A stretch of DNA of 62,820 nucleotides, filler included, from Stramenopiles sp. TOSAG23-3 (Eukaryota): the NCBI GenBank assembly GCA_900128585.1. It is 34 parts of 34 records of this genome, joined end to end, with 100 filler letters (N's around TTAATTAATTAA, not from the genome) between each part and the next. Parts side by side here need not be neighbours in the genome. Positions count along the whole stretch, not along the records: positions 33,411 to 35,159 come from LT645445.1; 33 more parts are not named here. One strand, given 5' to 3'. The notes beneath the pieces were generated by a model that was not told the origin of the DNA, ran no database searches, and saw only the letters and a list, made by a program, of their open reading frames with translations. Both the position numbers and the translations under genes were made by a program. Below are positions 3,502 through 61,564 of the stretch, piece by piece. How positions within the stretch are numbered: position 1 is the first letter of the stretch; each line of letters begins with the position of its first letter.

Positions 3502-3725
3502 TAAAAAAATTTAAAAAAATATATTATTTACAGGGCAGACAACGATCACCTCTAAAACAATTACGCCGCTGCTTTGAAAATCTCACAGGGAATGAGTCAT
3601 CTATGAGTGAGACACCGGATGAGGANNNNNNNNNNNNNNNNNNNNNNNNNNNNNNNNNNNNNNNNNNNNTTAATTAATTAANNNNNNNNNNNNNNNNNNN
3701 NNNNNNNNNNNNNNNNNNNNNNNNN

Positions 3726-5758: not shown

Positions 5759-7346
5759 ATGTCGAGACGAAACTATGGAAGAGTAAAGTCAAGGATTGCC
5801 CAAGGGCACCAGGTAGAGTCAAAAAAATCGAAAGAAAAGAAATGGAAAAGGAAGTCGTTGATCAAAATGAAAATGCGAGACGAGGAAATGAAGTCGGATG
5901 GAGCTTCCCAGGGCTCCTCGTATAAAGTTGAGCCCAATGTCAAGGAGGCGGTGCGGCAGTTTTTGCACGCGTTGGAACAACGAAAGTCATTGTACGGACA
6001 CAATATCGACGTCAACGACTTGACATCAGTCTTCTTGGCCTTTGATCGTGATGGGGAAGGTACGCTGGACGCCACAGAGTTCGAAGAAGGTTTGAAACGG
6101 CTCGGCGCGAACATCCCATTGGCACATTTAAACGCCATCTACGCAACGCTGGGACAGGACAGGAGCCAAGACATCCAATACAGCAAGTTTGCCAAGCTTG
6201 TCCAGACTGTAAAAGCTGAAATCGACGCGGAGGTGACCCTCAGAAGCGACTACCGCGGGGTGTTCGCCGGGGAACGGTCAAGCGGGCGCAAATGGCAAGT
6301 CCTGTTCACCCCACCTCCGGCCCTCTCATTTGGCTTAGCAAAACCCAAGCCCATGTTTGTCGGGCACTTCGACGACGAGGTAGCCGCGGCGATGGCATAC
6401 GACCGGACTGTCGTCGAGCGGTTGGGCCCAATCGACGGGGCCGATTACGTCAACTTTCGGGAGTCTGTGACGAGAGACTGGACGACCGAGGAGAACTTGA
6501 AGATGGAGCGAGAGCGCGACCGGCGCCGAAAAGCAATCGAACGATCAAAGGGGGCCGTGCTGTTTGCCGTCGGGAAAGCCATTGCGTCGAACAGGACGCT
6601 GTATGGCCATACACTGAACAATGTGCGCGAGATGTTCACGACGATTGACGCCGACGGTTCCGGGTCAATTGACGCCAGCGAGCTTGGCGAAGCCCTGGAA
6701 AGGCTAGGGTTGAATTTGTCGAAGAAGCAAATCAGTGACTTAGTAAACCTGATGGACATCGATCAGAATGGCTGCATTGACTTTGAAGAGTTCGCAACTG
6801 CAATGCGCCAAGGAAAGCGAGAGTACGCAGATTCCCTGAAACGGCTTCGTGGGACCAGTGTACAAAGTTTGTTGAAGAAAAAGAAGCGGCTCCTGAAGTC
6901 GCCGGCCACGCGCACGGAGCGTCTCAATGGTTGGAACAATTCGACGAGGGTGCCCTTAGATGTTGAATGGAGCGAACTTGCCTTGCCCCTGTCCAACTTG
7001 GTGCAGTCTGATGGGACAATAATTAGGCCAAACAGCAAAAACCAGCCCTCGTCGCCCTTGGACGCTACTGCCAAGGCCCGAACGACGCCACGCCCACCGT
7101 CGTCTCGCCGGAAACAATCTAGTCTCAAGAGCAACAGGCGCCGCCCACAAACTTCCCCCAACTTGTCTCGAAGAAACCAGTCTCCGGCTATGGTGCCCGT
7201 TTCCCCGATGAGTGGCAGCCGCACGCGACCATCATCTCCTGAGTGGAACCACCGTTTCAGCGCGAGGGATGTGACGGATCCCGGCTTTGTAACTGGCGAC
7301 GAGACGCTGTTGCTGAGCCTCAGTCCGAGCTTGCAGCAGAACATGA
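5759..7346 (+). CDS. EF-hand protein with embedded AP2-like domain (3' truncated)
   Basis: EF loops DRDGEGTLDATEF, DADGSGSIDASEL, DIDQNGCIDFEEF. AP2 signature YRGV...KW...VGHFDDEVAAAMAYD...NF at about 6245-6457. Confidence 0.8.
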
Positions 7347-33310: not shown

Positions 33311-33901
33311 NNNNNNNNNNNNNNNNNNNNNNNNNNNNNNNNNNNNNNNNNNNNTTAATTAATTAANNNNNNNNNNNNNNNNNNNNNNNNNNNNNNNNNN
33401 NNNNNNNNNNATCCCAATACTCAACTTTTCTTAATCTAAAATTTTATTCTGGTGCTTGCTTTCCAGTCTCATGCACTTGGTCTTTCACCTCCAGAAAGGA
33501 ATTGTGCTGAAAATGTGTATTTCTCCCGTTTCTTGCATTTAGAAATTTAGTAGAAAGTAAGAGTATTCACACTCTTCATGCAAGCGTTTGATCAATTTTT
33601 AAGGTCCGTTTGAGTACCTTGAACCTGTCATTTGATAGGAAACGATCAATATTACAATACAATATTTCCTAACAATATATAACCAGCACAACCTGAATAT
33701 TTATCTCCATTGATCGCCAGCCGGCTACTCTTTCCAAGAGATCACAGCACCGGGAACAGATTTTTCTTTCTGTGGTGGCTTTCTGTTCTCGATCGTGTGT
33801 GGTAGCTTTCTATTCAAATTTTATTCATATTATATATACTGTAAAATCCTATCTACATACAACAAGAACACATCGTAGCAGAGGGTCCTTCCCAATGCTC
33901 C

Positions 33902-34120
33902 TCCGATGTAGTGTAGTGTAAGTTTAATACAATTACAGCGCTTTACATAGGACAATTTCTAACATAAATCAATTCAACAATTACAGTGGTCAGCATTTCT
34001 GCCTTTCACGCAGGAAAGTACGTATAATAACCGTCAGAGCAGGATTTCTAAAAAGAATCATCTCTAACAACAATTCCCCCATCAAATAAAATAGCCCGGG
34101 TTCGAATCCCGGCATCGGAA
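33902..34120 (+). tRNA. tRNA-Glu(TTC) split by two GT-AG introns; exons 33902-33917, 33987-34017, 34095-34120
   Basis: Joined exons give 73 nt: acceptor TCCGATG/CATCGGA, D-arm GTGT-AGTTGGTCA-GCAT, anticodon arm TCTGC-CTTTCAC-GCAGG, variable AAAC, T-arm CCGGG-TTCGAAT-CCCGG. T-run follows at 34131. Confidence 0.9.
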
Positions 34121-34593
34121 AAATCCTTAATTTTTTTCTTTTTGCAATGCTATTCCGATGGTATAAATTCATATTTTAAGGCCACTACACGAAAGAAGTA
34201 CTAAATTAGTAGTGTAATATACGTAGATAGGTAATAAAATACACCCTACCGTCAATTAATCGTAGTGTAATGTATTTTAGATAGGGAGAATGCTGTATTT
34301 ATTTTATTGATTCTTCACTATTCACTATTTCCTGCACCCAACACTTGGATTAAGGTCTCGATATTTTTTTCAGGTTAATCAATTGATTTTTTAAAATCTC
34401 AATGCTCTGTGGTGTGTATATATTCGTTTACGGCAAAAGTACTTCATGAGAATACACTCTGGATTTCTCATTCCTATGCTGTGCCTACCTTACCTGAACT
34501 ATATAGTATATATAGTTAAAATTTCGACGCTATTTCAATAGTAAACGCTACATACTGTGCTAGCACAGTGTGTCAGTTAGGTTAACTCCTAAC

Positions 34594-34876
34594 TCCCATG
34601 TAGTGTAGTGTAAGTTTAATACAATTACAGCTTTACATAGGACAATTTCTAACATAAAATAATTCAAAAATTACAGTGGTCAGCATTTCTGCCTCTCACG
34701 CAGGAGAGTACGTATACATAAGCATCAGAGCAGGTAAAGGACCATCTCTAACAATCATCCCCCCTATCAAATAAAATAGCCCGGGTTCGGTAAGTACAGT
34801 AAAGAAAAAGACTCCTATTAAGCATTCTCTAACGAAAAACCGTATCTTCCATAATAACAGAATCCCGGCATGGGAA
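34594..34876 (+). tRNA. tRNA-Glu(CTC) split by three GT-AG introns; exons 34594-34609, 34677-34707, 34780-34789, 34861-34876
   Basis: Joined exons give 73 nt: acceptor TCCCATG/CATGGGA, anticodon loop CTCTCAC, variable AGAC, T-loop TTCG|AAT restored only after removing intron 34790-34860. T-run follows at 34883. Confidence 0.9.
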
Positions 34877-35259
34877 CCTTAATTTTTGTTTTTGCCTCTA
34901 AACTATTTTCCCATTCACCCACACTGAGAATAAGGTAGGCACATCGTATACATTATGAGTATGTACTTTCGTAGTGTAATGTATTTAACTGGACATCTCT
35001 CCATCCATCCATTTCCAAATTATATCGAATTTTTTTTCTTTCCGCTAGTCTGTTCCTGTTATTCTCTTCTCCGAGGAGGGTGGTTTCCTCTTCTTCTTCC
35101 TTCTTCTTTTTTTTCTTCTTTCTTCTTTCTTCTTCTTCCTTCTTCCTTCTTCTTTCTTCNNNNNNNNNNNNNNNNNNNNNNNNNNNNNNNNNNNNNNNNN
35201 NNNTTAATTAATTAANNNNNNNNNNNNNNNNNNNNNNNNNNNNNNNNNNNNNNNNNNNN

Positions 35260-48182: not shown

Positions 48183-49202
48183 CTGCTCTTCTCCAGCACC
48201 GCTTGGAGTGCATCGATGTACTTCACTGCTAACAAGTACTCGGTCGGGTTCTCCCCGCTGGAGACGACCGCGCGAGCGATTTCTTTCACGCTCTTGGCCT
48301 CTGCGCCAGCCTTGTTGATAATTGCCTGGGCGTCACCCCTTGCCCTTGAAACGACCTGCTGCAGCGCCCCCCGGGCTTCCGTTACAATTTTGTCCCTCTC
48401 GCCCTCTGCCAGTACCACTGTCTTTTGCTTTGTGGTTTTGGCCTGGATTATGATCTCTTTGTTCTGCAACTCGGCCTGTTTCCGTTTCGCCAAAACGTCT
48501 TTCAACTGCCTTGCCTCGACGTGTTGAATCCCCACCTTCTCTACCGTCACGCCCCAGCGCATGGCGATTTGGTTCAGGGAGTACTGGATACCCGTCAAGG
48601 CGGTCGTGTCGTCGACGATGGAGTCCACGTCCAGGGTACCGGCTACGTTTCTTATTTGTGCCTGGAGCAACTTCGACAGCATGTAAGGAAGGTTTTGCAC
48701 GCCGTAAATCATGACCTCCGGCTTTGTTACTTTGTAGTTGATCACAGCGTCCAACGTAACGCGAGCGTTGTCCCTACTGATAACGTCCTGCTTGGGAAAG
48801 TCCATGACTTCACTCTTTGTGAGAATAATGTGATGGTTGATCTGTTCTACTGCCTTTACCTGGCCGTTCTGGGTGATGTAATACTTCCACCTGTGTGTGA
48901 TTTAAAAAAAAAGAGCGAAAAAGTTGAGATTGGTTAGTTACTTCGTACAAGGCAACGGTGGGAGGGGGGGGGAAGGGGACTTACGTGTAAGTTTTCGGCT
49001 GGTAAAACGGCCATGGGACAAAGTGCGGTCCGGAGTGAAGGACCTTTGCAAAGCGCCCAAAAAACTCAATGACTACTGTTTCTTTCTCTTTAATGAAGTA
49101 TATCGATTTGTACGTGCAGTAGACGAAGAGGAGAGCGACCAACACGGCAATGATTGGGCCGACAACTCCGTCTCCACCTTCTGCTTGTAAAAGGACGAGC
49201 AT
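48183..49202 (-). CDS. SPFH/band-7 (stomatin-like) protein with one intron at 48891-48984 (3' truncated)
   Basis: TM, then VIE.FGRF...L.SG.HF..P and DFPKQDVISRDNA.V.LDAV. The GTAAGT...ACTAAC...CAG intron joins the two ORFs in frame (PKTYT/WKYY). Confidence 0.9.
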
Positions 49203-49706
49203 ATTACCGACTGTAGTTTGAACCTAGTATATGGGGGGGATAGGAAAACAAAGTGAGACAACCACTAACAAAGCAACAAAAAGAATCGAAAACGAAACGT
49301 AACGATTGTTGACTCGAATTGCTTTTCTTTGATGAATCGAAACCTCGAATTATTTCTGTTTCTCTTCATAATATAATCAATCCAATTTTTCTTTTGTTTC
49401 GTTTCCTGTAGTATATGTGTACATATATTTTACTATTATTATTATTATATATTAATTTTTTACTTCTTATTTTAAATCATCATCATCGTATTCAGTGTTA
49501 TACGCATTTAAATAGAGTTAAAAAAAAAAAAAGAAAGATCGAATAAAATATAATAATAAATTATAATAATTTTGTTTTTAGTAACATATATAAAAAGTAC
49601 AAAGTATTAGTAGTGTAATAATGGTATTATCTATCAGGTACTTCTCAATATTCTAAAAATGTTACACTTCAAGGTTTCATCAAAGCAAAATAACACGCAC
49701 ACTCCT

Positions 49707-49926
49707 CCTCTTCTTCCTTTTCTTCTTCTTCTTCTTCTTCTTCTTCTCCTTCTTCTTTTTCTTCTTTCTTCTTCTTCTTCTTCTTCTTCTTCTTTTTCTT
49801 CTTCTTTTTTCTTCTTTTTTCTTCTTCTTCTTCTTTCTTCTTCTTTCTTCTTCTTTCTTCTTCTTTCTTCTTCTTCTTCTTCTTCTTCTTTCTTCTTCTT
49901 CTTCTTCTTCTTCTTCTTCTTCTTCT
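49707..49926 (+). repeat. (CTT)n microsatellite
   Basis: Direct reading; runs into contig end. Confidence 0.93.
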
Positions 49927-57945: not shown

Positions 57946-58578
57946 ATACCCAGGGGAGAAGGGCTTGGTCTGCCATGAACATTGATTACACCACTCTTAA
58001 TTTATAATTATTCTATATTGCATACACAAAGAAGAAGCGAGCACGACGGTACTGTATCGGAGGCCGTTCCTTTACCGGTACCTGGCCGTACAATTAATTA
58101 CATTCAGTCTGCACTATGGTACTGGTACTATACCAACCATATTTTCGTTGATTTTCGACCTACCGTTAGTTAGTTCCTCCACCAGAGCTCCAGAGAGGTA
58201 CCCGTACGTACCAGGTATTTATCTTGGTAGGTACAGGTACAGGTACCCGCACCGAACAGCAGGAGAGATCATTCTTCTTCTTTTCTCTTTTTTTCTTTTT
58301 TATTACGCAAAAAAATCACAAGAAACATTTATACATTCACTTTATATATCATTTTAGTGACAACAGACGATTTTCTACGGCGCATGTTGCCATAAATCAT
58401 AGGACTTGTATGCCCGAACAATATTTTTCGTTTCTTTATTTGCTCGTCCACGGAGATTGTTTACTGCCGCTTTATCTCATAGCTACGCTTTTTTGTTTGA
58501 GAATTGCACTTTTTTGGGGTATAAAAAGCCCGCTATTGACAGTGTTGTGTTTGTACATATATATGCAAGTGTCATAGG

Positions 58579-60980: not shown

Positions 60981-61564
60981 NNNNNNNNNNNNNNNNNNNN
61001 NNNNNNNNNNNNNNNNNNNNNNNNTTAATTAATTAANNNNNNNNNNNNNNNNNNNNNNNNNNNNNNNNNNNNNNNNNNNNTTTTAAAGTATGTATTTGTA
61101 ATTGCATTGTATATATTGAAATGTTTTTTTGTTTGATGATTATTGCGGGTGATTTTTTTGTTGTTTTTTTGTTGTTTTGTTGGGGCCGCCGCCGGCGGCG
61201 GGGGGGGGCAATTATTTAATGAGGACACAGCAGGAAGACAGCAAAAAAACAAAAAATAACAAATTTTTTTTCTTCTTCTTCTTTTTTCTTCTTTCTTCTT
61301 CTTCTTTGCTATTTTGTTTTCTTCTTCTTTCTTCTTTCTTCTTCTTCTTCTTTCTTTTCTTCTTCAAAATGTTTTTTACGGCGGCCCCTCTATACGTGAA
61401 TAGGTAAAATGGATGAAAGAAAGAAAGAAAGAAAAACAATGGTGTAAATTTACTTCAGCAGAAAGAGAAACAGACCTGAAAGTTCATATGAAGATGTATT
61501 CGTGTTGTGTATATAGAATGAATTGAATCGATAGAAATTTTTTGTGCAAAGTAGAGTTTGGGTC

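Follow-up and report, generated by a model that had tools for sequence, protein, structure and literature searches.

Two tRNA-Glu genes interrupted by GT-AG inserts

The 62,820-base stretch of DNA analysed here (the window), from the assembly of Stramenopiles sp. TOSAG23-3, contains a contig with two transfer RNA (tRNA) genes for glutamate, a tRNA-Glu(UUC) gene (gene 1) and a tRNA-Glu(CUC) gene (gene 2), both of which are split by short inserts resembling spliceosomal introns (Table 1). The original prediction, made from the sequence, had described five inserts of 67–77 nucleotides (nt), and all five were found where it placed them, with lengths of 69, 77, 67, 72, and 71 nt. The signals attributed to them are likewise present in every insert: GTAAGT or GTACGT at the 5′ end, TCTAAC inside, and CAG or TAG at the 3′ end. 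The 5′ splice site consensus of U2-type GT-AG introns starts at the first base of each insert (GTAAGT in three, GTACGT in two), the branch A of TCTAAC is located 24, 27, 24, 28, and 28 nt from the insert end (inserts in order), and the 3′ border, CAG or TAG in all five cases, is the first YAG past the branch in a looser intron scan.

Excision at the GT/AG borders, carried out by joining the exons with a script, yielded two 73-nt cloverleaves as predicted, which ARAGORN called as tRNA-Glu(ttc) and tRNA-Glu(ctc). The end of gene 1 had to be corrected to 34120, the position obtained when the discriminator base is counted. In standard tRNA numbering, both genes have an insert in the D-loop (16/17) and one in the variable loop (46/48), and gene 2 has a third in the T-loop (57/58). 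None of them uses the canonical tRNA intron position 37/38, and neither does the insert at 58/59 in a related locus (L004, see below).

The combination of signals is highly specific in the window. The pattern GTAAGT or GTACGT, N28–42, TCTAAC, N16–28, YAG gave three and two matches, respectively, over the two strands together, and these are exactly the five inserts; the chance expectations for the two versions were 0.03 and 0.00 matches (100 shuffles each). The looser scan gave 21 candidates, eight of which are 100 nt or shorter, and five of these eight are the tRNA inserts. The sole other short intron-like match in the window is a 52-nt candidate (GTACGT..CTAAC..YAG) at 58160–58211 on the minus strand.

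The expectation that standard tRNA finders would overlook the genes also proved right. Neither ARAGORN, with or without its intron options, nor Rfam at gathering thresholds gave any hit on the unspliced genes, and ARAGORN at a lowered threshold miscalled the unspliced sequence as a tRNA-Leu with a 154-nt intron. A B-box motif scan of the window and of four related loci (L001–L004) found no further tRNA-like pieces. Sequences resembling exon 1 plus the intron start lie 3′ of each gene (around 34262 and 34971) and were considered as relics of decayed copies; they were rejected, as their local alignment scores (22–24) fall within the shuffled range (maximum 25–29).

Table 1. Positions of the two tRNA-Glu genes, their inserts, and associated features in the window
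Feature	Position	Strand	Description
Gene 1, tRNA-Glu(UUC)	33902..34120	+	219 nt unspliced, 73 nt spliced including discriminator A; ARAGORN cloverleaf
Gene 1 exons	33902-33917, 33987-34017, 34095-34120	+	
Gene 1 intron 1	33918..33986	+	D-loop, between 16 and 17; GTAAGT..TCTAAC..CAG, branch A 24 nt from end
Gene 1 intron 2	34018..34094	+	variable loop, between 46 and 48; GTACGT..TCTAAC..TAG, branch A 27 nt from end
Gene 2, tRNA-Glu(CUC)	34594..34876	+	283 nt unspliced, 73 nt spliced; ARAGORN cloverleaf
Gene 2 exons	34594-34609, 34677-34707, 34780-34789 (10 nt), 34861-34876	+	
Gene 2 intron 1	34610..34676	+	site as gene 1 intron 1; 93% identical to it
Gene 2 intron 2	34708..34779	+	site as gene 1 intron 2; 80% identical to it
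Gene 2 intron 3	34790..34860	+	T-loop, between G57 and A58, splitting the B-box; GTAAGT..TCTAAC..CAG, branch A 28 nt from end; gene 1 has no intron 3
TATATAT upstream of gene 1	33831..33837	+	at -71
TATATAT upstream of gene 2	34507-34513	+	at -87
T7 run after gene 1	34131..34137	+	RNA polymerase III terminator-like; 12 nt after gene 1
T5 run after gene 2	34883..34887	+	8 nt after gene 2; terminator-like, with another T5 behind it
Contig carrying both genes	33411..35159	.	1749 bp, GC 0.359; artificial 100-nt spacers on both sides
mRNA intron, other contig	48891..48984	-	94 nt; GTAAGT..CTAAC..CAG, branch A 43 nt from end

The two genes differ in only four of 72 exon positions (4, 34, 45, and 69), in accordance with the earlier description, and the changes at 4 and 69 compensate each other (G:C in one gene, C:G in the other), which points to selection keeping the acceptor stem paired. 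The further claim that the introns have diverged more than the exons holds for intron 2 (63 of 79 alignment columns identical) but not for intron 1 (64 of 69), when compared with the exons (68 of 72). The 100-nt flanks of the genes match at about 53% and are unalignable. The near-identity of the two copies of intron 1 within this genome may reflect gene conversion between the copies rather than constraint, because intron interiors vary freely between strains; the mixed alleles described below fit this explanation. The three intron sequences show no resemblance to each other or to anything else in the 62.8 kb window and the 24 kb of L001–L004, which is too little sequence to exclude a family.

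Intron-less relatives and natural variants

A search of metagenome contigs with the 31-nt exon 2 as the query found the four loci L001–L004; the exon-2 pattern had no match in viral contigs and in the genome contigs searched. Intact tRNA-Glu copies had been proposed as something to look for in related genomes, and three of the four loci (L001, L002, and L003) contain one: an uninterrupted tRNA-Glu(UUC) gene that is identical to spliced gene 1 at 72 of 72 positions, as expected of precise intron removal. The Rfam tRNA model (RF00005) scored this gene at 66.7 bits against a cut-off of 29; the score is that of the intron-less sequence identical to spliced gene 1, and the call for spliced gene 2 is that of ARAGORN. 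For introns 1 and 2, the border bases permit no shift, and only a cut at GT/AG yields the intron-less product. For intron 3, a one-base shift is allowed, and GT-AG is one of two readings.

These loci contain ordinary eukaryotic genes, including those for EF-hand, rhomboid, and Hsp70-like proteins and a helicase/PHD open reading frame (ORF) of 1982 amino acids, and a tRNA-Gly(GCC) gene is located near tRNA-Glu in these loci. A protein search with the EF-hand ORF of L001 gave no match. A second, degenerate tandem copy of tRNA-Glu was observed about 160 nt downstream of the intron-less gene in L001 (around 5800–5900, minus strand) and L002 (1413–1485, minus strand). The copy in L002 scored 44.3 bits and has a compensated acceptor change, and that in L001 was called by neither ARAGORN nor Rfam.

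The fourth locus, L004, is 97% identical over 2675 nt to L002, which is intron-less, and yet its tRNA-Glu gene is interrupted after A58 (58/59). Near-identical loci thus differ in the presence of a T-loop insert. This insert starts with GTATGT, has an A15 run, and contains TTTCTAAC about 45 nt in. It occupies positions 1–62 of the contig on the minus strand (junction 62/63); the contig ends inside the insert, after 62 nt, and does not reach the 3′ border. The intron scan found no further short introns in the 24 kb of L001–L004.

The stretch with the tRNA genes was detected in 20 runs from 15 studies, of which one is probably the source run, 13 are metagenomes from marine or seawater samples, and six are metatranscriptomes. 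Contigs from four of 22 listed runs were compared, namely X2, whose kind was guessed by software to be DNA, and the RNA runs X15, X16, and X17 (two studies). The contigs of these four runs (three studies) span the exon-intron junctions of both genes, so the exon-intron structure is not an assembly artefact; lack of support for the contig had been named as one way in which the prediction could fail. Within the two gene bodies, 22 variable intron sites were counted across the variant contigs, none of which falls in the 75 splice-signal bases (P = 0.0055), and the 146 exon bases contain only two variable sites (Fisher P = 0.0065 in comparison with the intron outside the signals); these counts are approximate, since they come from a filtered difference table in which a few indels are absent. 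Both exon changes, at anticodon position 34 and at position 45, are the states of the other isoacceptor.

The variants also differ in which introns they carry. A gene-1-type copy in X17 has, as its only exon changes, an anticodon changed to CTC and position 45 changed to G, the states of gene 2, together with many substitutions and indels in intron 2. In X16, a gene-1-type copy has an additional intron that starts with GTAAGTA at exactly 57/58. One X2 contig contains gene 2 without intron 1, with a precise joint from 34609 to 34677 at the GT..AG ends, and another combines a gene-2-type body having a continuous T-arm, without intron 3, with the 3′ flank of gene 1.

Several side observations were made in X2. 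Its depth is 5–7 times that of the surroundings at 34119–34295, just 3′ of gene 1, and in one X2 contig this segment follows the 3′ end of a different tRNA. It has the appearance of a dispersed repeat associated with tRNA genes and might be a tRNA-targeting element or a module shared by their downstream regions. Depth is also high in another patch with loose ends, at about 33470–33534. In another X2 contig, 34331 is joined to 34843 via 11 other letters, skipping 511 nt; most of gene 2 is gone in this variant, which retains the last 18 nt of intron 3 and the last exon.

Sequence context and source

The window consists of 34 contigs placed end to end in order of decreasing length, from 1763 to 1740 bp, with 100-nt spacers of the structure N44 + TTAATTAATTAA + N44 between them (at 1764–1863, 3626–3725, ... 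60981–61080). Gene neighbourhood across the window is therefore meaningless, ORFs spanning spacers are artefacts, and ORFs on neighbouring contigs are not linked to the tRNA contig. The window contigs need not share one source organism. The sequence context of the finding is limited to the 1749 bp of the tRNA contig, on which no ORF of 100 or more amino acids was found in any frame. CTT/CTTC repeats close this contig (35083–35159) and resemble the purine-rich low-complexity run of the Band_7 contig described below.

Other window contigs have ORFs encoding eukaryotic proteins. The best named relatives of a saccharopine-dehydrogenase ORF are oomycetes (about 47–50% identity). For a DEAD-box ORF, the best named relative is a EukProt entry bearing the prefix INCI (59%), which probably denotes a nanomonad (MAST-3) flagellate, and diatoms and other ochrophytes come next (about 45%). 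Another ORF contains five helicase-associated (HA) domain repeats. On our reading, the source is a marine stramenopile or stramenopile-like protist that is uncultured and poor in introns.

The messenger RNA (mRNA) intron that the original prediction had cited as using the same signals is a real one, with GTAAGT, CTAAC, and CAG, but it sits on a different, unlinked contig. Its removal opens a 315-amino-acid frame of a Band_7/SPFH protein, the downstream part of which matches Pfam Band_7 from profile position 38 on. Unlike the tRNA introns, it is T/C-rich and has a T9 run. The Band_7/SPFH gene (48183–49926, minus strand) has this one 94-nt intron, and on that strand its contig begins with a long, purine-rich run of low complexity whose translation gives K/E/R repeats. 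No other intron in the window was confirmed, and five introns in two tRNA genes are remarkable for this lineage.

Candidate splicing pathway, alternatives, and significance

The sequence, comparative, and population evidence together lead us to consider it probable that these are two functional nuclear tRNA-Glu genes, the loop-sited introns of which are removed by the U2-type spliceosome, probably from transcripts of RNA polymerase III (Pol III). Maturation of these tRNAs would then depend on the U2 spliceosome, as the original prediction had it. In the proposed course, each gene would give a precursor of 219 or 283 nt, most likely synthesized by Pol III. All introns are located in loops, so that pairing in the acceptor, D, anticodon, and T stems could persist and hold the exons of 10–31 nt together. 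U1 would pair with GUAAGU or GUACGU and U2 with UCUAAC, the introns would be released as lariats with the exons joined exactly at the GT/AG borders, and trimming by RNase P and RNase Z would be followed by CCA addition. We infer all three elements of this proposal: that splicing occurs, that the spliceosome performs it, and which polymerase transcribes the genes.

Several observations weigh against this proposal. All nine RNA contig records (runs X15, X16, and X17) carry the introns, and an exon-exon joint is seen in none of them, though metatranscriptome contigs are unlikely to show a modified 73-nt tRNA, pieces of 10–31 nt, or lariats, and DNA carry-over is possible. The forms precisely lacking intron 1 or intron 3 in the DNA-like run X2 mean that copies with fewer introns in the population could supply the tRNA. 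The stretch from the branch to the 3′ splice site is A/C-rich and has no T4, and thus lacks a T-rich pyrimidine tract; such a tract is dispensable where the branch site is strong. One internal exon, in gene 2, is merely 10 nt long, and the comparator consists of one mRNA intron on an unlinked contig. With respect to Pol III, some RNA contigs pass the T-runs (33888–34288 and 34734–35001), a better fit to Pol II or DNA than to Pol III. No TTTT and 11 AAAA occur in the 356 intron bases (A content 0.40–0.46), against 38 TTTT in 1250 flank bases, but the absence of TTTT is not significant once the base composition of the introns themselves is considered (P(0) = 0.33). Finally, intron 3 divides the gene 2 B-box, the unspliced reading of which matches only six of the 10 positions specified in the consensus.

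The choice of polymerase separates the proposal from its closest competitor, in which the same genes undergo the same spliceosomal removal but Pol II produces short non-coding host transcripts, splicing is co-transcriptional, and the tRNAs are cut out by RNase P and RNase Z. The split B-box, the TATA-like elements upstream of both genes, and the RNA contigs that extend past the T-runs and, for gene 2, begin at least 115 nt upstream (at 34479) would all suit Pol II, but the RNA contigs may be DNA carry-over and their ends do not mark transcript ends. The confinement of the RNA contigs to 33883–34288 and 34479–35001, with none over 33411–33882, which the DNA-like run covers, would hint at transcription but was not counted as evidence, as the contig ends may be repeat borders. 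The TATATAT of the intron-less relatives lies at -52/-53, and the spacing compared with -71 and -87 here yields no conclusion on the transcription start. Pol III, in turn, is favoured by the T-runs, which occur at +8 to +12 after both genes and likewise 3′ of the intron-less relatives (+8 to +10), and by the base composition of the introns, A-rich and free of T4, as opposed to the T-rich flanks and mRNA intron. By direct reading against the consensus, an A-box-like sequence is equally good with intron 1 in place and the gene 1 B-box is intact, and Pol III transcripts can be spliced, as exemplified by Schizosaccharomyces pombe U6 (PMC5855946). We place Pol III ahead of Pol II, if not by much, and regard the Pol II pathway as unlikely while giving it an appreciable chance.

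The remaining alternatives dispense with spliceosomal maturation. The genes might be dead or dispensable copies hit by introner-type mobile insertions and never spliced to a working tRNA, with intron-less genes elsewhere supplying the pool. The forms without intron 1 or intron 3, the intron-less genes of the relatives, the variable presence of an insert between the close relatives L004 and L002, as expected of mobile DNA, and the lack of spliced RNA among the RNA contigs compared are all compatible with this. The exons, however, show no decay: they retain the 72/72 identity to functional relatives, they hold only two of the 24 variable sites, both in isoacceptor states, and their acceptor pair 4:69 is compensated. 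The splice signals are invariant across the variants, no similarity was seen among the three intron sequences or between them and the rest of the window and L001–L004, and real degenerate copies are available for contrast (the second tRNA-Glu copies in L001, which neither ARAGORN nor Rfam calls, and in L002, with a score of 44.3 bits). Dead copies are therefore improbable. Still less probable is cleavage by the tRNA splicing endonuclease at bulge-helix-bulge (BHB) motifs, which would make the GT..AG appearance incidental. Multiple non-canonical introns of this type, in D-, variable, and T-loops, are known in Cyanidioschyzon merolae, nucleomorphs, and Archaea. At the true borders of the five inserts, only 3, 5, 3, 5, and 4 of the 12 BHB pairs form (null mean 4.4, 95th percentile 7), and intron 1 gains a 4-bp central helix only with a shifted cut that gives the wrong product. 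Moreover, all five inserts and two in other data carry 5′ splice site and branch signals that would be useless to the endonuclease and are nevertheless conserved. Chimeric joins arising from assembly or amplification would be conceivable in a fragmentary single-cell or binned assembly, and this one is highly fragmented, with contigs of about 1.75 kb; the contigs of the other runs across the junctions of both genes and the coherent splice signals of the inserts leave such an artefact a negligible chance.

A survey of the full-text literature by titles and abstract openings, in which subscription journals are largely not represented, found no report of spliceosomal introns in tRNA genes; an earlier report is possible. 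The non-coding hosts of spliceosomal introns named in the review PMC5855946 are the U6, U2, U5, U1, and rRNA genes, tRNA not being among them, and PMC12530127 treats spliceosomal and tRNA introns as unrelated classes. The closest parallel is provided by the introns in the U6 small nuclear RNA (snRNA) genes of S. pombe and other fungi, and in U1, U2, and U5 snRNA genes, in which a canonical 5′ splice site, branch site, and 3′ splice site likewise occur in a gene for a small structured non-coding RNA. Fungal U6 is a Pol III transcript and yet is spliced by the spliceosome, and its genes have up to four unrelated introns, which were repeatedly gained and are unconserved outside the signals (PMC5855946). 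U6, however, belongs to the spliceosome, and its introns cluster near the catalytic core, which supports an origin by reverse splicing at that active site, whereas tRNA has no such proximity. The nuclear ribosomal RNA (rRNA) genes of lichen-forming fungi also have spliceosomal introns in a structural RNA gene outside Pol II (Bhattacharya et al. 2000, as cited in PMC5855946), but the host there is a Pol I product in another lineage.

BHB-based disrupted tRNA genes are mentioned in PMC3978253. The endonuclease-type genes of C. merolae, nucleomorphs, and Archaea resemble the present ones in being split at one to three places, including sites in the D-, variable, and T-loops, in being missed by standard finders, and in regaining the cloverleaf upon removal. 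They differ in that their introns are defined by structure and handled by a protein endonuclease and a ligase; here, no BHB is present, and GTAAGT or GTACGT, TCTAAC, and YAG are found instead. The recent presence/absence differences of short introns between close relatives are reminiscent of the introners of marine protists. Introners form families of near-identical copies with terminal repeats, whereas the three introns here are unrelated within the 62.8 and 24 kb compared, too little to exclude a family.

We lean toward the view that spliceosomal introns in nuclear tRNA genes are encountered here for the first time and that pre-tRNAs made by Pol III in a marine stramenopile lineage would require the U2-type spliceosome for maturation. 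The introns would have been recently gained and lost at no fewer than four loop positions of tRNA-Glu (16/17, 46/48, 57/58, and 58/59), most likely via reverse splicing into exposed loops of the folded tRNA, with reverse transcription and then gene conversion among the copies as the next steps.

In the textbook division, spliceosomal introns belong to the transcripts of Pol II and to a small number of genes for snRNA and rRNA, and tRNA introns are the domain of a protein endonuclease (PMC12530127 and PMC5855946). A spliceosome-dependent tRNA, if true, would cross this line between nuclear intron types and would provide another, independent example, the second, of entry into the spliceosome by Pol III transcripts. 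Its exons of 10–31 nt, kept together by tRNA stems, would make it a very small natural substrate for studying splice-site recognition in the absence of exon definition, caps, and coupling to Pol II. Near-identical loci that differ in the presence or absence of introns constitute a live system for the birth of spliceosomal introns, and the tRNA sets of some protists may be under-counted because tRNA finders miss such genes.

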